A stretch of 24,000 nucleotides of DNA, from positions 149,630 through 173,629 of the forward strand of contig JAJQBQ010000044.1 in assembly GCA_021203205.1 (NCBI GenBank), written 5' to 3'. Below, in pieces: positions 3,923 through 19,658 of this stretch; the first letter of the stretch is position 1; each line of letters begins with the position of its first letter. The position numbers and the translations under genes were made by a program. The stretch comes from Lachnospiraceae bacterium. Its GTDB lineage: Bacteria; Bacillota; Clostridia; Lachnospirales; Lachnospiraceae. The notes beneath the pieces are model-generated. The model did not search any database and was not told the DNA's origin. It saw only the letters and a list, made by a program, of their open reading frames with translations.

Positions 3923-3930
3923 TTTTGCAC

Positions 3931-4290
3931 ATGAAATTGACAGAAGCCGAATGGTCTGTGATGGAGGTTTTGTGGTCCGGGGTGCGCTTTTCCCTGGGAG
4001 AGGTTACGGAGTCGCTAAAGTCTGTGAACGGATGGAGCAGGAATACGGTCTCTACGTATCTTTTGCGCATGCAAAAGAAGGGGCTGGTGCGGGTGGAACG
4101 CGAGTACCGCCAGCCATATTCTGCCGCGGTGACCCGTGAAGCCTGTGAGCGGAGCGAGCGGGAGGAGTTGCTGCAGAAGGTTTATGGCGGAGCCGTGGGG
4201 AATCTCGTGGCGGCGTTTTTAAAGGAAACCACCATATCCCACGAGGAAAAGGAGCGGCTGAAGAAATTATTGGATGAGATGGAAGTGTAG
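3931..4290 (+). CDS. BlaI/MecI/CopY-family winged-helix transcriptional repressor
   Basis: MKLTEAEWSVMEVLWSG...FSLGEVTESL...GWSRNTVSTYLLRMQKKGLVRVERE is the classic family N-terminus. The RBS GGAGG (3918-3922) lies 8 nt upstream of the ATG at 3931; the track start at 3925 is a TTG. Confidence 0.85.
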   Translation: MKLTEAEWSVMEVLWSGVRFSLGEVTESLKSVNGWSRNTVSTYLLRMQKKGLVRVEREYRQPYSAAVTREACERSEREELLQKVYGGAVGNLVAAFLKETTISHEEKERLKKLLDEMEV

Positions 4291-4558
4291 CAATGATACT
4301 GATGTCGAAAACCATGACACCACGACGCCATGAATTCGGAAGCAAGATTCCGACCATTGAAGTAAACGCTTTATGTTGACTTTGACTTTTGCCCCTGGTG
4401 TCCTGATTCGCCAGACTTGAGATTTTTGCAGCGATAAACATTGAATTAAAAACGGGCAGATAGTTCAGTAGTCTTTTATTTGATGAATGCGGAAAAAGCA
4501 TGGTGAAAAATTTAGTCGCTGCATGGTTTTAGTACAGTGACTGGGGAGGAGATTTTGA

Positions 4559-6247
4559 ATGATAAATTATGGGAATATATGGGGTTTCCTGCTTCAGACC
4601 TGCGCGGTTTCGATCGCCGCGGCATTTCTGCTGATCCTAAAGCACCTGTTCGCAAAGACACTTTCGCCCCGGTGGCAGTATGCGGTCTGGGGGCTTCTGG
4701 CGCTGCGCATATTGCTGCCGGTGAGCATTTCCAGATATGTCCTGATTCCGATCTCTGTTTTTCTGGAGACAATCAAGGGCATCGTGGAGAGGGCGCTGGA
4801 TTCCGCTTACGCGGGGGAGTTTTGGCCAATTTCGGTGAAGTTTGGAATTTCGGTTCCGGCGGGGCCCCCGCAGAGCATCACGGACTGGCTGTTTCTCATC
4901 TGGCTGATCGGCATGCTGGTGTGCCTGCTGCGTCTGGTGTTGGCATGGATGTCGCTTCACGTTCTGGTGCGCGGAGGGCATCCGGTGACGGCGGAAACGC
5001 AGAGCGTGATCAACGGAGTGAGCGAAAAATATCATCTGAAAAGCTGCAGGGCGATCACGGTGCCCGGCCTCACATCTGCGTTTCTGTGCGGAGTTTTGCA
5101 CCCGATCCTGGTCCTGCCGGAAGGGACAGACGTGGATGAGAAGGTCATCCTCCATGAACTGATGCACCGAAATCATCTGGATGTGCTGCAGAACTGGGGC
5201 TGGAATGTGCTGCGTGCGGTTCACTGGTGCAATCCGTTTTTGCAATATGTATTTCACCGCATCGGCAATGATATGGAAGCGCTGTGCGACCAGAGGGTGC
5301 TGGAATGCCTGGAAGGCGAGGAGCGGCGGGAATACGGCCGGGCGCTGTTAGCCATGGCAAATGAGCGGTACGCCCACACGCCGGGCACCACATCCTGGGG
5401 AAACGGCGGGAAGAATATCGCCCGGAGGATCGGCAGCATCGCGCATTTTAAGAAATATCCGGCAGGGATGGCGCTGGTTTCGGTGTGCATCTTTCTGGTA
5501 CTGCTCTGCCCGATTGCCTTTGGCACGACACTTTCGTTCAAAACGGCAAAATACTATTATCCGGAGAATACGGGGCTGGCGTTGGAGCGCTCGCTGGCGG
5601 TGGCGAGGCTTGACCGCTGCGATACCGTGGAAGAGGCGCTGGAGACCTATGCCACGGGGCTTCTGAAACAAAACGGGATTTACATCGCCGTCGCCTCGCC
5701 GCTTTCGGCGCAGGAGGAGCTGGCAGAGCGCATGCGTGATAACGCGGTGGATGAAGACTGGTTGGATGATATGGCAGAGGAATATTTGCCGGACAGTTCG
5801 ACGGAAACTTCGTCGGATGAGTCGAGGGGAACTTTATCGGGCATCGTGATGGTGGCGCAGGACGATGAAGACGATGAGGCGGAAGAGTATTCTTCCTGGA
5901 ATTATAACACGCAGGAGGTGCGGGAAGCCTATTATCTCGATGCAGGGGAAGAGCTGAGATATGTCGAGCACTTTGACGATATGACATATGTCGTAGATGA
6001 CCTGACGGCGGTCTCTGATACCGTCTGGGAGGCAGTGCTGCAGTTCACCTCCTGGCGCTTTTATGATGAAGAAGGAAACAGACTGATGGATGAGGATGGA
6101 GTACCGCTGGAAGGCTATGTTCGGATCCCGGTGACGATAACGCGGGAAGAAAATGCCTGGGTCGTGGAAGAGAGCGGGGAGAGGGAAGTCATCTACTGCG
6201 AGCTCTCGGGGGTTAATGGCTATTGGTGGTTTTCGTTTGTGCAGTGA
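4559..6247 (+). CDS. M56-family (BlaR1/MecR1-like) membrane metalloprotease signal transducer with a non-PBP C-terminal domain
   Basis: The RBS GGAGGAG is at 4545-4551. The N-terminal TM region is typical of BlaR1. The HEXXH motif HELMH is at nt 5153-5167. A late TM (MALVSVCIFLVLLCPIAFG) is followed by about 240 aa, including an acidic run, with no SxxK motif. Confidence 0.8.
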   Translation: MINYGNIWGFLLQTCAVSIAAAFLLILKHLFAKTLSPRWQYAVWGLLALRILLPVSISRYVLIPISVFLETIKGIVERALDSAYAGEFWPISVKFGISVPAGPPQSITDWLFLIWLIGMLVCLLRLVLAWMSLHVLVRGGHPVTAETQSVINGVSEKYHLKSCRAITVPGLTSAFLCGVLHPILVLPEGTDVDEKVILHELMHRNHLDVLQNWGWNVLRAVHWCNPFLQYVFHRIGNDMEALCDQRVLECLEGEERREYGRALLAMANERYAHTPGTTSWGNGGKNIARRIGSIAHFKKYPAGMALVSVCIFLVLLCPIAFGTTLSFKTAKYYYPENTGLALERSLAVARLDRCDTVEEALETYATGLLKQNGIYIAVASPLSAQEELAERMRDNAVDEDWLDDMAEEYLPDSSTETSSDESRGTLSGIVMVAQDDEDDEAEEYSSWNYNTQEVREAYYLDAGEELRYVEHFDDMTYVVDDLTAVSDTVWEAVLQFTSWRFYDEEGNRLMDEDGVPLEGYVRIPVTITREENAWVVEESGEREVIYCELSGVNGYWWFSFVQ

Positions 6248-7441: not shown

Positions 7442-7993
7442 TTATTGTGTTTTCTTTGAATCCGGAATCCTTTTTTCCAGGAGTTCAGCCGAAAAGTGCG
7501 CTGCGCAATAGTCTGATAAACTCCGTGGCAATTGCCTGAAACCATCACCATAGGATGAAATCGCCTTCAGTAAATCGTTATTCAATCTGGCAGAATTCAG
7601 ATAGTCATGAACAATGGAATTCCGATTCTTAAAGAATTCAACAGCTTTTTCCTCGTCCCTGTTTTCGGCAATTTTGCGCATTTCGTATTGCCTGATATGA
7701 TAGGAAAGCGTTTCCTCATAAGTTCCTCTTCCTGGTTCATTGATCTCAATAAAAATCATCACATCGCAGAATGCCTGAACAATATGGTTCAGTCGACTGG
7801 TAATTGCACTCAGAATCGTGTCCTGTAACCTTTCATCTTCGCACCTGCAATATCTTTCGTATTCCTCTATCATCCGGTCTGCCTGATCCTGCATATGCAG
7901 CAGGCTGTTCGATACAGACCTCTCCACTTCGTCGAATGTTTTAGGCGCGGCTGCTCCGACATTTTCCCATATTTCATTCGGTATATTAATCAT
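7442..7993 (-). CDS. hepT: HEPN-domain (DUF86/HepT-like) RNase toxin
   Basis: RNSIVHDY is the R-x4-H-x-Y HEPN/DUF86 motif. I prefer the ATG at 7993, which forms an ATGA overlap with the upstream MNT stop (7990-7993). The track start at 8053 would overlap MNT by 64 nt. Confidence 0.75.
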   Translation of the reverse strand: MINIPNEIWENVGAAAPKTFDEVERSVSNSLLHMQDQADRMIEEYERYCRCEDERLQDTILSAITSRLNHIVQAFCDVMIFIEINEPGRGTYEETLSYHIRQYEMRKIAENRDEEKAVEFFKNRNSIVHDYLNSARLNNDLLKAISSYGDGFRQLPRSLSDYCAAHFSAELLEKRIPDSKKTQ

Positions 7994-8478
7994 ACCTGCG
8001 CTACCTCCCCGGCTGTCATCCCCTGCCTGCTTTTGAGCAGTAAATTTTTCCATCTGAAGTATTTTTTCTTTTGCTTCTGTTCCTCCCGGTATTCAGGCAA
8101 TCCATGCAAAATAACGTACAGGTCCGCCTTAAGCTGCTCCGGATAATAATCTGTCATTCGAACAGAGCTTAAAATTGCATATGGAAATATAAATGCCCGC
8201 TCAATAAAACGATACTCAATAACATCTGCCGGGAGATTCATATTGCGGAAATAATCTTCACAAAATAAGTATATTTGCCATTGTTTTTCACGATTCTGGC
8301 AATACACAATCATATCAATATCGCTTCTCCCGTCCTCGAAGTCTGAGCGGATAAAGCTGCCGTATACAAATACATTGTAGTCCGCTTCGCCGAATTTTTG
8401 AATCAGAGCCTTTTGAAATTCGACTAAAACTTTTCTTCGGTCGGACCATTCTGTGAAAGAACCGGTTTCATAATTCAT
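7990..8478 (-). CDS. mntA: Minimal nucleotidyltransferase (MNT/MntA-like) antitoxin
   Basis: VFVYGSFIRSDFEDGRSDIDMIVY carries the GS-x10-D-x-D nucleotidyltransferase motif. The RBS GAGGTGAT lies upstream. The gene is translationally coupled to the HEPN gene. Confidence 0.75.
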   Translation of the reverse strand: MNYETGSFTEWSDRRKVLVEFQKALIQKFGEADYNVFVYGSFIRSDFEDGRSDIDMIVYCQNREKQWQIYLFCEDYFRNMNLPADVIEYRFIERAFIFPYAILSSVRMTDYYPEQLKADLYVILHGLPEYREEQKQKKKYFRWKNLLLKSRQGMTAGEVAQV

Positions 8479-12392: not shown

Positions 12393-12860
12393 TCAGTCAC
12401 TCAATTTATTAGTCCATTTCCAGGCACGGCCTTTCTCCAGATAATTTGTTAACTGTGCATCCATGAGAGGATACATGGTTCTGTACGATAATTTCCCAGT
12501 AACGGAAATTCGTACAACTACTGCAATGTGATCAGAAAAGTCTTTGATAAAAGAAATACTGCTATCTTTAGGGTGGATAGCCAGATAATCTGGATTCTGA
12601 ATGATATCAGGTATGCTTTCCAAAGCATTAAGGTATGCAGTATCAGACATAAAATCATTTTTATGACGCTCTGTATGAAGCAGACGGTCTTTCCAGAAAA
12701 CGATATCTGTTTCAGATGACAAAACAGATGCCAAAGAAGGAGATTTTTCTTTTAAAAAGTTTACAATATCAGAAGAAATACGTCCAATTCTAACATATTG
12801 TATGTTAGAATCAGCAAAGCTTTCTGTAGAAAACTTTTGATGAAAGCTATCTACTTGCAT
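12393..12860 (-). CDS. Putative BECR-fold (Barnase/EndoU/colicin E5-D/RelE-like, PBECR-type) nuclease domain protein
   Basis: The RBS AAGGAGGTGAT is strong. The motifs DIVFWKDRLLHTERHKNDF and IPDIIQNPDYLAI resemble my memory of PBECR-family toxin domains. The family call is tentative and the CDS call is solid. Confidence 0.45.
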   Translation of the reverse strand: MQVDSFHQKFSTESFADSNIQYVRIGRISSDIVNFLKEKSPSLASVLSSETDIVFWKDRLLHTERHKNDFMSDTAYLNALESIPDIIQNPDYLAIHPKDSSISFIKDFSDHIAVVVRISVTGKLSYRTMYPLMDAQLTNYLEKGRAWKWTNKLSD

Positions 12861-13043: not shown

Positions 13044-13071
13044 TTGACATCAATACACAAACATGTAAAAT
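13044..13071 (+). promoter_or_regulatory. Sigma-A-type promoter for the primase-helicase gene
   Basis: TTGACA (13044-13049) is followed by a 16-bp spacer and TAAAAT (13066-13071). It lies 60 nt upstream of the ATG at 13131. Confidence 0.55.
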
Positions 13072-13130: not shown

Positions 13131-16100
13131 ATGAACGAAATTGAAAGTCTGAAAATACGGGTATCCCAGCTTGAGAAGGAAAATGAATATCTGCGAACTC
13201 TGTTGACAAATGCCGGAATCTCTTTCGAGTCAGAAGACAAATCAACGAAATGTGATAAATATGATCCGAACCAGGGAAGCCGTATCATTCCCAAAACGGA
13301 ATTCACTACGGATGATGCGAATGATTTTTTTGTGATGTTTCGCGGTCGGATGGATTTATACAGCAAGCGTACCGTCTCAAAAGCGAAAGGAACAGCCGAT
13401 TATTATCCCCAGTGTCATAAGATCTGGCAGGAGGGATGCCCGAAAAAAGAAGATAAGAAATTTCAGTGCAGCAAGTGCAAGTCGCCTGCATTTATCAGGT
13501 TGGGAAAGGAACAGATTTTCGCGCATCTAAAGGGTTTATCGAAAACTGCAGAGGATGTCATCGGAATCTATCCCCTTTTTCCGGATGATACGTGCCGATT
13601 GATTGTGTATGATTTTGATAACCACGAAGCGGGAGCTGATAAACATGATTTTGCAAATACGGATGATTCCTGGATGGATGAGGTGAATGCGCTTCGCGAA
13701 ATTTGCAGGGTGAACGGAATCGACGCGCTGGTGGAGCGTTCCAGATCGGGCAGAGGCGCACATGTATGGATTTTCTTTCAGGGGAAAATAGAGGCCAGCC
13801 TTGCCAGAAAGTTTGGGTTTATGCTTCTCGGAAAAGGAGCAGAGTCTGTTGATCTGAAAAATTTCAGGTATTATGATCGCATGTATCCGATGCAGGATCA
13901 TTTACCGGAGGGCGGTTTTGGAAACCTGATTGCGCTGCCGCTGCAGGGGCAGGCGCTGAAAAACGGAAACAGCGCGTTTGTTGATGAACACTGGAATGCG
14001 TATCCGGATCAGTGGGCGGTGTTGAGGTCAAAGAGAAGATTAAGCAGGGATTTTATCGAAGAAAAAATAAAGGAATGGAGTATGCAGACTTCCATTCCGT
14101 CCATTCCATTGGATGAGATATCTGAGAAAACAAATGAGAAGCCGTGGAACAAATCGAAGAGCTTTCAAATGGAAGATGTAAAAGGAGCGCTTCATATTTC
14201 ACTGGCGGATGCGGTTTATGTAAAAACATCGAACCTCACCCCCAGAATCCGTAATCAAATTCGGAGACTGGCAGCTTTTAGCAACCCGGAATTCTATAAA
14301 AATCAGGCGATGGGATTATCGAACTTTAAAAACTCCAGTTACATTTATCTGGGGGAAGATGCCGATGGGTATATCCGAATTCCCAGGGGATTGTTGGATA
14401 ATCTTAAAGAAAATTGTGAGAATGCAGGCATTCCTTACGAAATCGAAGATCATCGCTGTGCAGGGCATGATATAAAAGTAAAATTTACCGGAAATTTAAA
14501 AGAATCTCAGATCACAGCGGTTCAGGCGTTGGAAAAGTATGATACCGGAATTTTACATGCGGCCACGGCGTTTGGAAAGACAGTAGTCTCCTGTGATATG
14601 ATCGCGCGAAAACATGTAAATACGCTGATTCTATTGCAGAACTCGACACTGATGGAGCAGTGGGAAAAAGCGATAGAGAACTTTTTGGAGATTGATGAGG
14701 AACCACCGGAATATCAGACACCGAGTGGGAGAACCAGAGTTCGGAAAAGCGTGGTCGGTCGTCTGCAGGGAGCCCACGATTCTACAACGGGGATCATTGA
14801 CATTGCAATGGTTGGCTCTTTATGTAAGAAAGGGATATTCCATGAAAAGCTCAAACAATATGGAATGGTCATCCTGGATGAGTGCCATCACGCTGCTTCA
14901 GATACAATTGTGGATGTCTTACAGGAAGTACGTGCGAAATACGTGTATGGTGTAACTGCGACTCCGAACAGAGGTGACAGGCTGGAAAAGATAAATGAAA
15001 TGCTGTTGGGGAGAGTTCGCTACCGATTTACTTCGAAAGATCGCGCCAGGGAGCAGGGGATTGCACACCTGGTTGTTCCACGCTTTACCAGAGCGGTAGC
15101 CCCAAGATTTGGAAATGACAGAATGCACCCGAATGAAGCATATGAACTTTTAAGAAACAATGAGGATCGGGATGAGATGATCCTGTGTGATGTTCGAAAA
15201 TGTGTGGAAAGCGGACGGACGCCGGTCATCCTTTCAAGATATGTTGATCATTCGCGCAAATTATATGAGCGTCTGCAAGGGTGCGCAGATCGGATATTTT
15301 TACTGTCCGGCGAGAATTCTAAAAAGGAACATCGGAAAATCATAGAGCAGATGAACCGTGTGTCAGCAGACGAAAGCATGATATTGATCGGAACAGGCAA
15401 ACTGGTCGGCGAGGGATTTGATTTTCCACGATTGGACACGCTGATCATGGCAACGCCGGTATCTGGAAAAAATGTCGTGGAGCAATATGCCGGGCGTCTG
15501 AACAGAGATTATGAGGGGAAAGAGGATGTCATAATCTATGACTATGTGGACATTCATATCAGTGTGTTTGAAAAAATGTATAATAAGCGGCTGAAAGCCT
15601 ACCGACAGATTGGGTATGACATGTATACGGAAACACGAATAATGAAAGAAAAGGGTAAGAAGAAAAGCGAAGGAAAAGATGAGGGGAAAGACGAAGGTGG
15701 CAACGATAGAGAAGATGAGTCAGCACAGAGTCCCGGTGCTATCTATGATGCGGGAAATTATCTTGAAAGATACAGGCAGGATCTGTGCCGGGCTGGAAGT
15801 GAAATCATCTTGTCAAGCCCGGTAATCAGTAGCGGGAAAGTAGATGAACTCATTGAATGGCTCCAGGAAAAGCAGCAAAGCGGCGTGAAGGTTCACATCG
15901 TCACATGGAAACCGGACATGTATGGTTTCGGAGACAGCGCGTACTGGATGGAATTGCAGGAGCGAATGCGGAACGCGGGATTTGAGATGAACCTGGTTGA
16001 AGATTACTGCCTGCACTATTGTATTGTTGACAGGGAATTGGTCTGGTACGGGAGTATGAATTTCCTTGGAAAGGAAGACACAGAAGATAATCTTATGAGA

Positions 16101-16178
16101 GTGTGCAATAAAAGTATTGCGGCAGAATTGCTGGAGATGACTTTTGGAGATGGAAATTATTGGGGAGAACGGATGTGA
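13131..16178 (+). CDS. Multidomain protein: coiled coil + 4-Cys ribbon + AEP/PrimPol-like domain + SF2 DECH-box helicase + C-terminal degenerate PLD-like domain
   Basis: AEP-like motifs are LIVYDFDNHE (DxD, nt 13611-13619), ERSRSGRGAHVWIFF and GGFGNLIALPLQG. Helicase motifs are AATAFGKTV (I), ILDECHH (II, nt 14877-14888), GVTATPNR (III), GEGFDFPRLDTLIMATP (V) and QYAGRLNR (VI). The C-terminus has LHYCIVDRELVWYGSMN, an HKD-like motif with K replaced by C. Confidence 0.85.
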   Translation: MNEIESLKIRVSQLEKENEYLRTLLTNAGISFESEDKSTKCDKYDPNQGSRIIPKTEFTTDDANDFFVMFRGRMDLYSKRTVSKAKGTADYYPQCHKIWQEGCPKKEDKKFQCSKCKSPAFIRLGKEQIFAHLKGLSKTAEDVIGIYPLFPDDTCRLIVYDFDNHEAGADKHDFANTDDSWMDEVNALREICRVNGIDALVERSRSGRGAHVWIFFQGKIEASLARKFGFMLLGKGAESVDLKNFRYYDRMYPMQDHLPEGGFGNLIALPLQGQALKNGNSAFVDEHWNAYPDQWAVLRSKRRLSRDFIEEKIKEWSMQTSIPSIPLDEISEKTNEKPWNKSKSFQMEDVKGALHISLADAVYVKTSNLTPRIRNQIRRLAAFSNPEFYKNQAMGLSNFKNSSYIYLGEDADGYIRIPRGLLDNLKENCENAGIPYEIEDHRCAGHDIKVKFTGNLKESQITAVQALEKYDTGILHAATAFGKTVVSCDMIARKHVNTLILLQNSTLMEQWEKAIENFLEIDEEPPEYQTPSGRTRVRKSVVGRLQGAHDSTTGIIDIAMVGSLCKKGIFHEKLKQYGMVILDECHHAASDTIVDVLQEVRAKYVYGVTATPNRGDRLEKINEMLLGRVRYRFTSKDRAREQGIAHLVVPRFTRAVAPRFGNDRMHPNEAYELLRNNEDRDEMILCDVRKCVESGRTPVILSRYVDHSRKLYERLQGCADRIFLLSGENSKKEHRKIIEQMNRVSADESMILIGTGKLVGEGFDFPRLDTLIMATPVSGKNVVEQYAGRLNRDYEGKEDVIIYDYVDIHISVFEKMYNKRLKAYRQIGYDMYTETRIMKEKGKKKSEGKDEGKDEGGNDREDESAQSPGAIYDAGNYLERYRQDLCRAGSEIILSSPVISSGKVDELIEWLQEKQQSGVKVHIVTWKPDMYGFGDSAYWMELQERMRNAGFEMNLVEDYCLHYCIVDRELVWYGSMNFLGKEDTEDNLMRVCNKSIAAELLEMTFGDGNYWGERM

Positions 16179-16309: not shown

Positions 16310-16519
16310 ATGACCGATAAGCAGAGAGAAATGATTGAGTACACGACACAGGATATTATCGCGTTCATTATGGAGGACAAAAACCTGAATATGGATGAGG
16401 CAATGGAGTTGTTTTATACATCTGTGACATTTGAAAAGCTTACAGATATAGAAACAGGTCTATATTTACAGGGTTCATCGTATGTCTATGAATTGTTTAA
16501 CAGGGAGCATAGGCACTGA
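16310..16519 (+). CDS. Small helical protein, tentatively DUF3791-like
   Basis: The 69-aa ORF stops 27 nt before the next gene's start. Its pattern ...DEAMELFYTSVTFEKLTDIETGLYLQGSSYVYELF loosely recalls DUF3791. The family call is weak. Confidence 0.5.
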   Translation: MTDKQREMIEYTTQDIIAFIMEDKNLNMDEAMELFYTSVTFEKLTDIETGLYLQGSSYVYELFNREHRH

Positions 16520-16546
16520 AAATCAGATAAAACGGGAGGAACGAGT

Positions 16547-18328
16547 ATGGCGCAGCGAACCGTATGTCTGTGTGACGGAAAATATGTAGGAATCGAGACG
16601 ATTTTCACGGTTGTCGACGGCAGGCAGATCAATATTCCGGGAAAGGTAGAGGAACTTCGTGCCAGAAGCCGGAAGAACGAATTGTTTTGTCCCTGTGGCT
16701 GCGGGTCCAACCTGATCCTTGTGGCCGGGGACAAAAACCTCCGTGAGCAGCATTTTCGCCTGAAAGACGGCGCATCGAATGCGAATTGCAGCGCGGTCAC
16801 GGAGGGCAACATATCGCTGAATTCCAAAATTGTTCTGAAATGCTGGCTGGACGACAAGCTTCACGCCACAGACCTGGAGACGCGTGTACCGGTCCGGTCA
16901 CTGGAAAACGGATCCTCGAATTCAAAAAACGGCGGCAGGAAGTATGAATTTTCCTTCCTTTCAGCAGAAAAGAAAATTGCGCTGAGTTACACGCATGAGA
17001 GAGCGAATCTCTCTGATGAAAAGTTTGATGCGTTGGAAAGTAATCAGCAGGAAATTCAAATCCTGTATGTGGTGGATGAGGCAAACAGCGGAAATACCGG
17101 CCAGTACCCGGAGGGGCTGATGAAGATTCAGAGGCGGCAGGGTCACCTTCTGTTTCTGAATATCAAGGGCTCGAATTATGCGGAGGCAACCCTGCATGCG
17201 GCTTTCTATGAGAAGGATATCGATGGACACTGGCAGGAACTCACGTTTGCGGAGGATGCACTGCCGCAGTTTGATATTGACGAGAACGGCGTAGTTATTT
17301 ATGCGGGAAAAGCGCTGGAACTGTATCGGGAAGATGTCCGCGACAGTTTTCGGGCAACACAGGAAGAATTAAAAAAAAGACGCGAGGAGGAAAGAAGACG
17401 CAGGGAACTTGAAGAAGAGAGGAGGAAGCAAAGGGAGAGGGAACGGCTGATTTGGGAGGAGGAGCAAAGGCGAGCCAGACGGCAGCGGGAAGAGGAAGAA
17501 AGACGAGCCAAGATACAGCAGGAGGAAGAGGAGAGACGGGCCAGAGAGTTACAGGAAGAAGAGGAAAGACGGGCATGGATGCTTCTATCGGAGGAAGAAA
17601 GGCGGGCTCGGAGACAGAAGGAAGAGGAAGAAAGACAGGCCAGAATACTGCAGGAAGAGGAAGAAAGGCGAATTCAGGCGCAGCAGGAAGAGGAACTTAA
17701 GGCGGCCCGGAAACTCCGCGAAGAAGAAGAGAGGCGACAGCGGGAAGAAGAGAGAAAACAGAGGAAAGTCGAAAATGAGCGGCTCTGGGAAGAAGAGATG
17801 GATCGCCAGAGCCTGGAACGGGCGAAAAGACGCCAGGAAGCCGCAGAGTATAGGGAAAAACGGCGGGATGATATAGAAAAGGAAAGGCAGCGCCTGGAAG
17901 AAGAGTATCAGCGACATTTAGCCGAAAGCAGGCGTCGGCGGGCGGAGCAAGAAGCCGAGGCCAGAAAACGGGACGAGGATTTCCGGCACAATATGGAGGC
18001 GCAGTTTTCACAGCAGGAACGACCGGTTTATGACCGCGATGGAAACCGCTGGATCCGCTGTGAATTTTGCGGAAAAATTGACCGGGACAGCAATTTTGTT
18101 TCCTACGGCGGGAAAAATCATGTGAATCTTGGAACCTGTAAAGAGTGCGAGTCGAACAACCCGGCGGTGCGGGAAAAGGCGGCCGCCGCGAAAATGCAGG
18201 CGGCCAGACGGCGCGACCAGAATACCTGCCCGGAGTGCGGCGGAACGCTGACCTTGAGGAATGGGCGGTTTGGCAGCTTTTATGGGTGCAGCAACTTTCC
18301 GGCGTGCAGGTATACCAGGAGAGCATAG
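16547..18328 (+). CDS. CoiA-like N-terminal domain / roughly 200-aa ER/K charged helix / two C-terminal zinc ribbons including a topoisomerase-type C4 finger
   Basis: The RBS GGGAGGA lies upstream. [29 protein letters not shown] resembles the CoiA N-terminal Cys-rich motif ...FFCPxCG...HFAHK. Residues 271-478 are almost entirely E, R, K and Q. CEFCGK...CKEC forms one ribbon. [30 protein letters not shown] is a zf-C4_Topoisom-like finger. Confidence 0.8.
17357..17980 (+). repeat. In-frame purine-rich coding repeats, with 33-bp / 11-aa EEEERRAxxxQ-type units in the core
   Basis: Successive units read [56 protein letters not shown] and [25 protein letters not shown](A/G)C recurs at about 33-nt spacing between roughly 17490 and 17700. 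Confidence 0.8.
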
Positions 18329-18481: not shown

Positions 18482-18721
18482 ATGCCAAATATAAAACCAG
18501 TTTCTGATCTGCGCAATTATACAGAAGTACTACACGATGTAGCCTCCGGCTCTCCGGTTTTTCTTACAAAAAACGGACGGGGACGTTATGTGATTCTTGA
18601 CATGCAGGATTATGAAAAGTCTCTGGCCATGCAGAGACTTGCGAATGAGCTTTCGAAAGGGAAAAAAGCAGGAGAAGAACAGGGGTGGATTTCATCGGAT
18701 GAGATGAGAAGCCATTCGTGA
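18482..18721 (+). CDS. Phd/YefM-family type II antitoxin
   Basis: The RBS GGAGG (18471-18475) lies 6 nt upstream. MPNIKPVSDLRNYTEVLHDVASGSPVFLTKNGRGRYVILDMQDYE is a typical Phd/YefM N-terminus. Confidence 0.8.
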   Translation: MPNIKPVSDLRNYTEVLHDVASGSPVFLTKNGRGRYVILDMQDYEKSLAMQRLANELSKGKKAGEEQGWISSDEMRSHS

Positions 18722-18735
18722 AAGAAGGTGGAATA

Positions 18736-18957
18736 ATGAAGCGGGAAGATTATATTTCCGATGAGGAAGTTGTAAAAAGAGCTTGCGCGGCAGTAAAAAT
18801 TGAGCTGGAGAAGAAAGAAGTATTAGGGATACCGGCTGTAATATATGACCGAAAAACACAAAAAATTTATCACGTTTATGGGGATGGAACAAAAGTAGAA
18901 ATTGCCGATCGGTTAAGGAAGGGGCGTTACAGTGAGCAAATCAAACAGGAAGCCTGA
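18736..18957 (+). CDS. Small protein of unknown function between the antitoxin and the zeta-like ATPase
   Basis: The ATG at 18736 has GAAGGTGGA upstream; the alternative GTG at 18718 overlaps the Phd stop. It is 73 aa and I recognise no family. Its 3' end overlaps the next gene by 26 nt. Confidence 0.55.
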   Translation: MKREDYISDEEVVKRACAAVKIELEKKEVLGIPAVIYDRKTQKIYHVYGDGTKVEIADRLRKGRYSEQIKQEA

Positions 18958-19525
18958 AGTTATCGTGTTTTGCGGGCCAAACGGATCAGGAAAAAGCACG
19001 TTAACTGAACTGCTGAAACCTCCTGTGGATTACATTAATGCAGATGAGATAAAGAAGAATTTGAAGTGCACGGATCTTGAAGCAGCGCAAATTGCTGAGA
19101 AACAAAGAGAAGAACACCTCAGTCGTAGGGAAGAGTTCTGTTTCGAAACGGTTTTATCAACGGACAGAAATCTGAATCTGCTAAAAAGAGCGCGAGAACA
19201 GGGATATTTTATACGATGCTATTATGTATTAACGGCCGACCCGCTTATTAACGTTTTTCGTGTCAGATCCAGAGTCGAGGCGGGAGGGCATGATGTGCCT
19301 GAGGAAAAGATCATTTCAAGGTATGACAGAGCGCTTGCCCTGGTGAAAGAGGTAGTAAAAGTAAGTGACATATGCCATATCTATGACAATTCAGGAGATT
19401 ATCCATTTCGCATATTCAAGAAACAAAAAGACATAAATTATTATGATGAATGCGAGGACTGGCATCTTGAAGATATTGAGGTGTTGACCGGAATCTGTGA
19501 GATGGAAAAGAAAAATCTAAATTAA
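18932..19525 (+). CDS. Zeta-toxin-like P-loop kinase/ATPase (COG4185-type)
   Basis: The start is GTG. The Walker A motif is VIVFCGPNGSGKSTL. YINADEI, FETVLS and RVRSRVEAGGHDVPEEKIISRYDRAL match my recollection of the COG4185/zeta family. Confidence 0.75.
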   Translation: MSKSNRKPEVIVFCGPNGSGKSTLTELLKPPVDYINADEIKKNLKCTDLEAAQIAEKQREEHLSRREEFCFETVLSTDRNLNLLKRAREQGYFIRCYYVLTADPLINVFRVRSRVEAGGHDVPEEKIISRYDRALALVKEVVKVSDICHIYDNSGDYPFRIFKKQKDINYYDECEDWHLEDIEVLTGICEMEKKNLN

Positions 19526-19631
19526 AATATGATTTTTTTGAATATATTGATTACGTGATATTGGCGAAAATACGAGCTGACAGGATCAATTAGTTACCAT
19601 TCCTATCAGCAGATGAAGAAGCAAATTATTG

Positions 19632-19658
19632 GGGCTGACCGTAAGGTCAGTCCTTTTT
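19632..19658 (+). terminator. Rho-independent terminator
   Basis: A 9-bp stem pairs GGGCTGACC (19632-19640) with GGTCAGTCC (19645-19653), including one G-U pair, around the loop GTAA. T5 follows at 19654-19658. Confidence 0.75.

Follow-up and report, generated by a model that had tools for sequence, protein, structure and literature searches.

The window analysed here is the whole stretch of 24,000 nucleotides taken from a contig of a Lachnospiraceae bacterium, and near its middle lies a long open reading frame to which an earlier note on this DNA had drawn attention and which is present as that note described it, with 1015 codons for amino acids on the forward strand. Its product is identical to MCD8119814.1, a protein from a Lachnospiraceae MAG that is annotated generically as 'DEAD/DEAH box helicase family protein'. 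The gene and its parts are as follows.

13044 to 13071, plus strand: sigma-70-like promoter, TTGACA-16-TAAAAT, agreeing with the consensus at 11 of 12 positions (a consensus match only), about 60 nt 5' of the start codon
13131 to 16178, plus strand: gene of the IS-excision enhancer (IEE) family, 1015 aa, ATG start
13131 to 13214, plus strand: leucine-heptad helix, aa 1-28 (L7, L14, L21, L24, L25), a possible dimerisation element
13323 to 14060, plus strand: AEP/PrimPol domain, Z1568-like (Pfam AEP-TOTE, PF22548, E=2.1e-76), aa 65-310
13413 to 13478, plus strand: 4-Cys zinc ribbon inside the AEP domain (C95, C103, C113, C116), assigned from Cys conservation
13611 to 13619, plus strand: AEP motif I, D161-F-D163, predicted metal ligands (IEE D142/D144), invariant in 73/73 homologues
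13740 to 13763, plus strand: AEP motif II, S204-R-S-G-R208-G209-A-H211, predicted nucleotide binding (IEE S171, Q175, G176, H178), with S204, G209 and H211 invariant
13875 to 13877, plus strand: AEP motif III, D249, predicted third metal ligand (IEE D216), invariant in 73/73 homologues
14061 to 14492, plus strand: middle domain, aa 311-454, conserved with IEE (aligned to IEE aa 277-422)
14493 to 15620, plus strand: SF2 helicase-like ATPase core, aa 455-830 (Pfam ResIII, DEAD, Helicase_C)
15633 to 15734, plus strand: K/E/D-rich low-complexity linker, aa 835-868, the least conserved stretch, disordered in the model
15738 to 16154, plus strand: single-copy PLD-fold domain, aa 870-1008 (AlphaFold and Foldseek), absent from E. 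coli IEE
16008 to 16061, plus strand: degenerate HKD motif, C960-L-H962-YCIV-D967-RELVWY-G974-S975-M-N977 (canonical H-x-K-x4-D-x6-G-S-x-N)

A GGA-rich ribosome-binding site precedes the reading frame. The GC content of the gene (45.0%) is close to that of the whole window (46.7%), and only the flanking spacers fall to 35-36%, so that the 'AT-rich block among toxin-like genes' of the earlier note holds for the toxin-antitoxin-like neighbours and for the spacers, but not for the reading frame itself. Pfam and PADLOC identify PBECR3, Phd/Zeta and a PDC-M13C-like ORF in the surrounding window. Integrase, relaxase, Rep, partition and transposase genes are all missing among the window ORFs scanned, and neither cas genes nor a CRISPR context occurs within the window; the remark in the earlier note on the absence of nearby genes for replication, integration or conjugation is true for every window ORF scanned.

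The N-terminal helix is predicted at aa 2-27 in the full-length model, with a mean pLDDT of 74-83 per 10-residue block over aa 1-30, and gives weak Pfam matches to bZIP and TSC22. Its five heptad leucines are invariant in the homologue alignment A4, and the helix is shared with E. coli IEE, where it aligns to aa 10-27. The AEP domain that follows has as its nearest solved structure the CRISPR-associated PrimPol CAPP (7nqf/7nqd, aa 141-300, E=5e-8). Conservation was counted in alignment columns of 73 diverse Clostridial homologues; three of the ribbon cysteines (C95, C103 and C116) are present in all 73 and C113 in 72, all four aligning with cysteines of IEE, and Y147, at the position of IEE Y128, is Tyr or Phe throughout. 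These results bear out the leucine-zipper-like N-terminus, the 4-Cys ribbon and the AEP assignment that had been read from the DNA, including the hhhDFD motif at nt 13611-13619, which is D161-F-D163. The block GNLIALPLQG, previously taken as the third AEP motif, is conserved in the family, but the metal-ligand motif is Y-D249-R, aligned with IEE D216.

A 'TOTE' AEP model, mentioned in the earlier note as present in domain databases, does exist as Pfam AEP-TOTE, and the 'TOTE conflict system' label might be read to mean that the gene encodes the effector in a conflict operon of the canonical TOTE type (TPR, OB, TBP, Effector). What defines such operons is a gene fusing TPR with a cold-shock/OB domain, accompanied by TATA-binding-protein genes (PMC12458937), and TPR-OB or TBP genes are absent both from the window ORFs scanned and from the 25 commonest families among 150 proteins adjoining homologues. 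Since E. coli IEE bears the same AEP domain (E=1.7e-98), likewise without TPR-OB/TBP neighbours, the domain alone does not indicate a TOTE operon; we consider this reading highly improbable, and the Pfam label is not to be taken as evidence for it.

The middle domain is, from its alignments, the N-terminal accessory domain of a UvsW/XPB-type helicase module: a PHROG_16 DNA-helicase match begins at aa 342, and phage UvsW-like matches begin at aa 335-414. Within the ATPase core, Pfam recognises ResIII (aa 455-614, E=4e-17) and Helicase_C (aa 691-792, E=3e-6), and the solved helicases closest to it are XPBII (6p4f, E=2e-9) and UvsW (2oca, E=3e-7). Motifs I (GK483T), II (D583-E-C-H586), III (TAT, 609-611) and VI (Q785..R789..R792) are all present, K483 and R789 being the equivalents of IEE K451 and R735, and the named residues are invariant in the 73 homologues apart from T609 (Thr in 54, Ser in 19). 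In the linker, by comparison, the mean majority-residue frequency in the same alignment is 0.12. The complete SF2 helicase and charged linker of the earlier note are thereby confirmed, with each residue that it named at the stated place, and the HMM profile search that it had proposed returns significant matches to AEP and helicase profiles alike. The coupling of an AEP to an SF2 motor is less unusual than had been supposed, as this fusion already defines the 'Z1568-like' family among the AEP families of PMC5862659.

The kinship with E. coli IEE is illustrated by a BLASTP comparison with the protein of strain O157:H7 (ECs1305 / Z1568, 786 aa, bearing the published residues Y128, D142, D144, H178, D216, K451 and R735), in which aa 11-834 of the window protein and aa 10-780 of IEE form one colinear alignment with 34% identity (E=2e-150). 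By this alignment the window gene is a gut-Clostridia homologue of IEE, colinear over the whole IEE length, and has the AEP motifs, the SF2 fusion with motifs I, II, III and VI, and the gene-length colinearity of the IEE / Z1568-like AEP-SF2 family. The catalytic residues published for IEE, polymerase and ATPase alike, are all conserved in the window protein, with D161, D163, H211, D249, K483, D583, E584, R789 and R792 invariant in the 73 Clostridial homologues, and the nearest solved structures common to the two proteins are CAPP (7nq*) and UvsW (2oca). An identity of 34% supports conserved chemistry well, but not a shared biological substrate.

IEE raises the transposase-dependent excision of IS3-, IS1- and IS30-family elements, requires a transposase in vivo, and has been characterised as a Mn-dependent DNA polymerase and DNA-dependent ATPase that carries out microhomology end joining and lesion-prone synthesis in vitro but has no unwinding activity (PMC9943667; its activities are also covered in the review preprint 10.1101/2023.06.07.543989). 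The statement in the earlier note that no experimental function is known therefore fails for this colinear homologue sharing the same Pfam domain. The in vivo mechanism is disputed between end joining after a double-strand break and strand switching during copy-out (PMC9943667; 10.1101/2023.06.07.543989). In E. coli, the genome-wide co-occurrence of IEE with copy-out-paste-in IS elements is 94.75%. The in vitro end joining and lesion-prone synthesis, together with a polymerase and helicase layout that parallels Pol theta, would also fit a host DNA-repair or damage-tolerance factor performing Pol-theta- or LigD-like microhomology end joining or translesion synthesis on chromosomal breaks unrelated to mobile DNA, for which relatives with an intact HKD motif would supply an end-processing nuclease. 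We think this improbable, as homologues have a patchy, island-like distribution and roughly 6% of the copies are split or have become pseudogenes, unlike a core repair gene, and E. coli IEE depends on a transposase in vivo.

Beyond the region shared with IEE, the PLD fold suggested by the earlier note is supported by the AlphaFold model and Foldseek search that it had proposed, whereas a canonical HxK motif is absent. Pfam PLDc_2 matches aa 883-997 slightly below its 27-bit cut-off (26.5 bits, E=6e-6); a model of aa 866-1015 has a pLDDT of 82.7, and Foldseek relates it to Zucchini (4ggk, E=2e-7), Nuc (1byr, TMq 0.72) and NucT, and also to the non-catalytic PLD folds TrmBL2 and FAM83. Both the motif itself and the columns of the 73 homologues show that the catalytic HxK is not present in the window protein's domain: the catalytic-His position 960 is C in 45, E in 8, I in 7, A in 3, D in 3 and H in 2, and the Lys position 962 is H in 64 and R in 7, while D967, G974 and N977 are invariant bar one gapped row at 967 and 977. 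The nucleophile position is thus unconstrained across these homologues, and the window protein is, as read from its motifs, a member of the IEE family extended by a C-terminal PLD fold without the canonical catalytic His and Lys. It is unlikely that this module works as a nuclease effector in the window clade, although H962, located in the PLD pocket, might conceivably sustain catalysis of a non-canonical kind. In a motif census, a minority of the wider family retains HxK, with an intact HQK in P0371, P0352, P0339 and P0374. The family exists in three states, with an intact-HQK PLD, with a degenerate PLD and with no PLD at all, which suggests that the core activity can do without the nuclease.

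The genomic neighbourhoods were surveyed at 80 species-level homologue loci of about 20 kb each. No conserved partner gene was found across them, the ORFs of 16310-18328 lie next to none of the 80 homologues, and at one locus (L009) the homologue is a lone single-gene insertion between housekeeping genes. Together with its own promoter-like site, the varied neighbours and this lone insertion indicate a stand-alone gene, and we regard it, from its predicted context, as a single unit residing in variable islands where toxin-antitoxin and defence genes abound. The proposal that it forms the core of a conflict system with its downstream genes is therefore not sustained. The gene is a variant of the known and partly studied IEE family, not the core of an unknown system.

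AEP-helicase fusions often replicate mobile elements, and Proteobacterial homologues are found on plasmids or integrative elements, beside AlpA/YfjI/Gp2 or ParB/DUF932/integrases, which raises the question of whether the window protein serves an integrated plasmid, ICE or satellite as its replicative primase-helicase. Its motor, however, is of the monomeric SF2 type (UvsW/XPB-like) rather than an SF3, SF4 or DnaB hexamer, IEE does not unwind DNA, the window has none of the mobile-element genes listed above, searches of 50,697 phage records and of IMG/VR yielded no full-length homologue, and the L009 copy stands alone among housekeeping genes; such a role is very unlikely.

The defence genes that the earlier note had thought might surround homologues do often adjoin them: Schlafen/AlbA_2 ATPases, HEC-02, SoFic, Wadjet JetD, Kiwa KwaA, Lamassu LmuB, restriction-modification and toxin-antitoxin genes all occur beside homologues in variable islands. 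These neighbours, the PBECR3, Phd/Zeta and PDC-M13C-like genes of the window, the placing of the AEP domain by Pfam curators under a predicted conflict system and the match of the AEP to the PADLOC PrimPol model PDLC01465 (listed as CRISPR-associated, E=7e-62) would suit a single-gene anti-phage or anti-plasmid effector, in which the ATPase detects replication or recombination intermediates of foreign DNA, the AEP and PLD remnant corrupt or abort replication of the invader, and IS excision is a mere visible consequence. We hold this to be unlikely. The PADLOC matches are to single domains, with no full-length system-protein match with required partners (Mokosh II, DISARM, Pbe, type IV restriction) and no full-length system model; the literature search found no report of anti-phage activity for the IEE family; the expected nuclease is degenerate in the window clade; and non-defence cargo also typically co-locates in islands.

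The reading that we favour, and consider reasonably likely by analogy with IEE, is that the protein is an IEE-type polymerase/ATPase whose substrate is DNA that is broken or undergoing transposition, and that its PLD remnant serves in DNA binding or dimerisation. The AEP would be a Mn-dependent, error-prone DNA polymerase, as the biochemistry of IEE suggests, with Y147 pointing to a preference for dNTPs, and could pair 3' ends at short microhomologies and lengthen them, or else change template. The UvsW/XPB-like part would act as a DNA-dependent ATPase that holds duplex and promotes synapsis or remodelling, not as a processive replicative helicase. Nuc-type PLD nucleases act as dimers, and the leucine helix and PLD remnant may contribute dimerisation, binding of the DNA backbone or of DNA ends, or both, and so bring two ends together. 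The targets would be broken or replicating intermediates of mobile DNA, chiefly copy-out-paste-in insertion sequences, and the outcome excision or deletion, after which the donor would be resealed. Against this stands the absence of transposase genes from the window ORFs scanned and from the commonest families of the 150 neighbouring proteins. The protein is thus probably a genome-maintenance, anti-transposon factor carried as island cargo. We note that the frequent defence-gene neighbours fit a wider anti-invader role just as well as one in IS excision.

PLD-bearing IEE proteins number thousands of sequences in gut Clostridia, plus a probably Bacteroidota contig. It is conceivable, although we offer it tentatively, that they represent a widespread single-protein guard against transposons, and possibly plasmids and phages, in which polymerase, motor and an (ancestral) nuclease make a self-contained end-processing and microhomology-joining machine, and that the series from intact HKD to dead HKD to no PLD documents how the nuclease was lost step by step. 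In that case, members with an intact HKD would favour break-and-rejoin over strand switching alone as the way in which IEE works, and genes of the IEE type would influence IS load and the rate of deletions throughout the gut microbiome. To our knowledge, IEE is the sole bacterial protein known to actively promote insertion-sequence loss, and the recognition of a large uncharacterised branch in gut anaerobes, hidden under a generic helicase annotation, extends IEE biology past pathogenic E. coli. The fused and apparently active PLD of some members would provide the kind of end-processing activity that the end-joining model ascribed to unknown host factors, and the window clade, which keeps the domain after loss of its catalytic residues, offers a natural experiment on dispensable parts.

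Comparison with known systems places the window protein closest to E. coli IEE, with which it shares the leucine helix, 4-Cys ribbon, AEP, middle domain and SF2 ATPase in colinear order, as well as the status of a stand-alone gene in a horizontally acquired region. It differs in having about 180 extra C-terminal residues (charged linker and PLD fold), in its host (Lachnospiraceae as opposed to Enterobacteria) and in its setting, as E. coli IEE sits in a SpLE1-like AlpA/YfjI/Gp2 element and the window gene does not. The four intact-HQK fusions, of about 957-982 aa, have the same AEP-TOTE, ResIII/Helicase_C and PLDc_2 architecture and, in the core common to both, have only 35-41% identity with the window protein; one is from the probably Bacteroidota contig (judged by a Por_Secre_tail neighbour), and P0352, the only one whose locus was read, is, like the window gene, a stand-alone gene in a toxin-antitoxin-rich island. 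They retain the canonical motif as H-Q-K...D...G-S-x-N and score above the Pfam PLDc_2 cut-off, whereas the window clade has C-x-H and scores below. CAPP (7nqd/7nqf) has an AEP akin to that of the window protein but lacks the SF2 and PLD modules. Conversely, Mokosh II MkoC, DISARM DrmC, SauUSI-type type IV enzymes and the Dnd-linked restriction helicase likewise join a helicase motor to a PLD fold, and yield weak single-domain matches (MkoC 5e-5, DrmC 2e-3, mREase_IV 1e-11, PDB 7clg 1e-7), but these defence systems have no AEP polymerase and depend on an active HKD, which is degenerate here. Finally, the single-HKD nucleases Nuc and Zucchini and the pseudo-PLD folds of TrmBL2 and FAM83 have the PLD fold in common with the window domain (TMq 0.66-0.72), which keeps the D...G-S-x-N half of the motif and, in lacking the catalytic His and Lys of Nuc and Zucchini, resembles the non-catalytic TrmBL2 and FAM83.

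The gene at positions 13131-16178, the longest open reading frame of its region, encodes a 1015-residue product (the window protein) in which an AEP/PrimPol domain, an SF2 helicase and a PLD-fold domain are joined; a purine-rich ribosome-binding site precedes it.

Features of the gene (nucleotide positions) and Pfam matches of its product (aa)
13044-13071, 5' of the open reading frame: predicted near-consensus sigma-70-like promoter, TTGACA-16-TAAAAT, by consensus match
13131-16178, + strand: IEE-like open reading frame, ATG start
aa 65-310: AEP-TOTE (PF22548), E=2.1e-76
aa 455-614: ResIII, E=4e-17
aa 691-792: Helicase_C, E=3e-6
aa 883-997: PLDc_2, E=6e-6, 26.5 bits against a cut-off of 27

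An identical protein from a Lachnospiraceae MAG (MCD8119814.1) carries no annotation beyond 'DEAD/DEAH box helicase family protein'. Every residue named in the earlier note is present at the position it gave, but GNLIALPLQG, proposed there as the third AEP motif, is a block that lies further downstream and is conserved in the family, the metal ligand being D249 within Y-D-R. The AT-rich block in which the gene was said to lie comes down to the short flanking spacers (35-36% GC), as the open reading frame itself has 45.0% GC and the whole window 46.7%.

In plasmid records, tblastn identified genes for 'DEAD/DEAH box helicases' of ~800 residues in many Proteobacteria, E. coli among them, that match residues 2-836 of the window protein with 34-36% identity. 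In the E. coli O157:H7 EDL933 record one such gene adjoins AlpA, YfjI and inovirus-Gp2-type genes, and its 786-residue product contains Y128, D142, D144, S171, Q175, G176, H178, D216, K451 and R735, which are exactly the residues described for the IS-excision enhancer IEE (ECs1305 / Z1568) (PMC9943667). By BLASTP the window protein and IEE form a single colinear alignment (aa 11-834 against 10-780; 34% identity, E=2e-150) that takes in the N-terminal leucine-heptad helix, the four cysteines, the AEP motifs, the middle domain and the entire SF2 module. A full-length AlphaFold model, whose alignment of 32 sequences lacked depth and whose mean pLDDT was 55, was used for the N-terminal helix only. 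Among solved structures, the AEP part of the window protein comes closest to the CRISPR-associated PrimPol 7nqd/7nqf and its motor to XPBII and T4 UvsW, and the HHpred templates reported for IEE are likewise CAPP, the CRISPR-associated primase-polymerase (7NQE), and UvsW (2OCA) (10.1101/2023.06.07.543989). On the basis of homology, domain order and catalytic residues, the window protein can be assigned to the IEE family with high confidence.

This assignment bears on the suggestion that the gene is the core of a poorly characterised conflict system. IEE itself matches the Pfam AEP-TOTE model with E=1.7e-98, and thus the 'TOTE' AEP model is equivalent to what an older classification calls the 'E. 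coli Z1568-like' AEP family; the pairing of AEP and SF2 domains has long been listed as an AEP family (PMC5862659). Since that pairing is an established one, and its founding member has been studied both genetically and biochemically, the gene does not represent the unknown system that had been suspected. IEE stimulates the transposase-dependent excision of elements of the IS3, IS1 and IS30 families and, with it, flanking deletions (PMC9943667; 10.1101/2023.06.07.543989). Genome-wide co-occurrence of IEE with copy-out-paste-in IS elements reaches 94.75% in E. coli. The DNA polymerase activity of the IEE AEP domain depends on Mn, is error-prone and tolerates primer/template dislocation, and its SF2 domain is a DNA-dependent ATPase with no detectable unwinding; both domains are required for the joining of 3' overhangs that have at least 4 nt of common microhomology (PMC9943667). 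The mechanism is debated, with one model invoking end joining after transposase-made breaks (PMC9943667) and the other strand switching in the copy-out step (10.1101/2023.06.07.543989). A general repair role for the window protein, set beside this end joining on the one side and the transposase dependence of excision on the other, is less likely.

Over 8000 database proteins match the window protein at E<=1e-10, the best 120 of which are 964-1016 residues long with 63-100% identity to it, and scanning a single genome for each species yielded 80 loci, mainly in Lachnospiraceae and other Clostridia, with 48-75% identity. Among 73 non-redundant full-length homologues, D161, D163, S204, G209, H211 and D249 of the AEP domain and K483, D583, E584, H586, T611, Q785, R789 and R792 of the SF2 module are invariant, as are the zinc-ribbon residues C95, C103 and C116; C113 is a cysteine in 72 of the 73, and the position of Y147 is always Tyr or Phe. 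The invariance of the catalytic residues indicates that the polymerase and ATPase of the Clostridial homologues are under strong constraint. About 6% of gene copies are split into two open reading frames.

An AlphaFold model of residues 866-1015, which hold the PLD domain, is confident (pLDDT 82.7, pTM 0.81), and Foldseek relates it to the single-HKD nucleases Zucchini (E=2e-7), Nuc (TMq 0.72) and NucT, and also to non-catalytic PLD folds such as TrmBL2 and FAM83. A PDB profile search with the domain gave MitoPLD (E=0.005) as the relevant match; designer pentatricopeptide repeats ranked first there, but their scores merely add up weak matches to single repeats and are spurious. The D...G-S-x-N half aligns perfectly with H-x-K-x4-D-x6-G-S-x-N, which puts C960 at the position of the nucleophilic His and H962 at that of the Lys. 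Across the 73 homologues position 960 is Cys in 45, Glu in 8, Ile in 7, Ala and Asp in 3 each and His in only 2, and position 962 is His in 64 and Arg in 7. A profile of the domain has 2812 matches among 1.84 billion representative proteins; in the 150 of these that were listed it lies at the C-terminus of long proteins and also in short fragments, and the representatives have CxH (21), CxR (18), HxK (13) and many other combinations. Short proteins of this kind are numerous but give no evidence of a separate, stand-alone PLD gene; the one that was examined in the context of a long contig (locus L091) proved to be the end of a pseudogene that is split. The PLD domain of the window protein is thus very probably no canonical nuclease; its retention, with 23 of 139 columns at least 95% conserved, suggests a probable role in DNA binding or dimerisation.

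Four full-length relatives (P0371, P0352, P0339 and P0374) have the same AEP-TOTE, ResIII and PLDc_2 architecture as the window protein with an intact HQK...D...GSxN site, and their PLDc_2 scores exceed the Pfam threshold; P0352, unlike the window protein, is predicted to have nuclease activity. One intact-HQK fusion (locus L092, 8001-10898) sits in a toxin-antitoxin-rich island on a contig that is probably from the Bacteroidota, as judged from a Por_Secre_tail neighbour.

Identity to E. coli IEE over the common core
P0371, P0352 and P0339: 42-43%
P0374: 38.5%
Window clade: 35%

In a rough neighbour-joining tree of this core, which is indicative only, IEE groups among the intact-HQK fusions and not with the window clade, hinting that IEE, which has no PLD domain, may have lost an ancestral nuclease domain. 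Such a topology would fit an old PLD fusion after which one branch lost catalysis and another lost the domain altogether.

The 90 loci in which genes were called comprise the 80 genome loci, the window itself and context loci collected earlier; clustering of the 1441 neighbour proteins revealed no conserved partner gene among them. The downstream genes at 16310-18328, put forward as possible partners, cluster with no gene in the 80 homologous loci and are rejected as such; of the window flanks, only a Phd antitoxin gene has any similarity in DNA to those loci. The commonest neighbour, in 24 of the 90 loci, is an AlbA_2/Schlafen + HATPase_c_4 gene, often 18-28 bp away or overlapping, which is absent from the window. 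This 'RecG-like regulator' directly adjoins IEE-PLD homologues in the same orientation in ~14 of the 80 species-level loci (including L010, L012, L045, L048, L049, L057, L058, L066, L070 and L073), with gaps of 18-28 bp or overlaps of 16-35 bp, and spans sub-clades of 49-75% identity; it could be a facultative partner of IEE-PLD, or the site could be a common insertion hotspot. Other neighbours of the homologues include serine recombinases, DUF4143 ATPases, Fic, DUF3990 and HEC-02, as well as Wadjet, Kiwa, Lamassu, restriction-modification and toxin-antitoxin genes. This island context lends indirect support to the main rival explanation, a broader single-gene anti-invader function; the literature search found nothing relevant on an AEP + helicase + PLD defence system. 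A replicative primase-helicase is less likely: the scanned window open reading frames include no integrase or Rep gene, 50,697 phage records hold no full-length homologue (only UvsW-like helicase matches of 22-26% identity), and IMG/VR viral contigs give helicase-domain matches and no full-length homologue. Nor do these window frames include a transposase.

Also less likely is a canonical TOTE effector. The TOTE system is defined by TPR-OB and TBP genes (PMC12458937), and neither was found in the scanned window open reading frames or the commonest neighbour families of the homologues; a canonical TOTE operon is rejected on this ground. The PADLOC 'PrimPol' model PDLC01465, listed as CRISPR-associated, matches residues 56-383 of the window protein (E=7e-62) far more strongly than does the solved CAPP (E=5e-8), which raises the possibility of a link between some AEP domains of the IEE type and CRISPR loci.

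The window contains further open reading frames. Just 3' of the IEE-like gene, a 69-residue open reading frame (16310-16519, + strand) matches the PADLOC candidate-defence models PDC-M13C (E=4e-28) and PDC-M13B (E=5e-11), has no Pfam match and was not found adjoining IEE-PLD homologues. The 593-residue frame that follows (16547-18328, +) has a Cys-rich N-terminal part that resembles CoiA_N very weakly (E=0.077), an E/R-rich coiled coil ~250 residues long and encoded by imperfect 33/66-bp tandem repeats (17455-17670), which account for the strong purine skew of this stretch, and a C-terminal topoisomerase-I-type C4 zinc ribbon. Three frames at 18482-19525 (+) encode a Phd/YefM-like antitoxin, whose gene alone among the flanks resembles another locus at the DNA level (L070, 73%), a 79-residue product and a Zeta-toxin/AAA_33-like kinase, and are followed by a terminator-like hairpin (19631-19654). 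On the 5' side, a 155-residue frame (12393-12860, -) matches PBECR3/PBECR2 (E=1e-15); PBECR domains are Barnase-EndoU-ColicinE5/D-RelE-like nucleases. This frame has a strong promoter-like site to itself (12930-12902), in divergent arrangement with the IEE-like gene. At 7442-8478 (-) an NTP_transf_2 nucleotidyltransferase frame overlaps a 203-residue frame with no Pfam or PHROG match, and the two may be an MNT/HEPN-type toxin-antitoxin pair. A BlaI-like repressor (Penicillinase_R) and a BlaR1-type M56 peptidase sensor at 3925-6247 (+) are ordinary signal-transduction cargo.

The IEE mechanism is the most economical one for the window protein. The AEP polymerase would align 3' ends and extend them on microhomology, or switch template, and the SF2 ATPase would clamp and remodel the duplex; in this branch the PLD domain, with its degenerate catalytic site, and the leucine helix at the N-terminus could tether two protomers or two DNA ends to each other. 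Its substrates would be mobile-DNA intermediates, above all those of copy-out-paste-in insertion sequences. IEE, as founding member of the AEP + SF2 family, is already known from genetics and biochemistry (PMC9943667); what appears to be new, as far as the literature searched shows, is a large PLD-bearing branch of this family in gut anaerobes, with graded decay of the HKD site.
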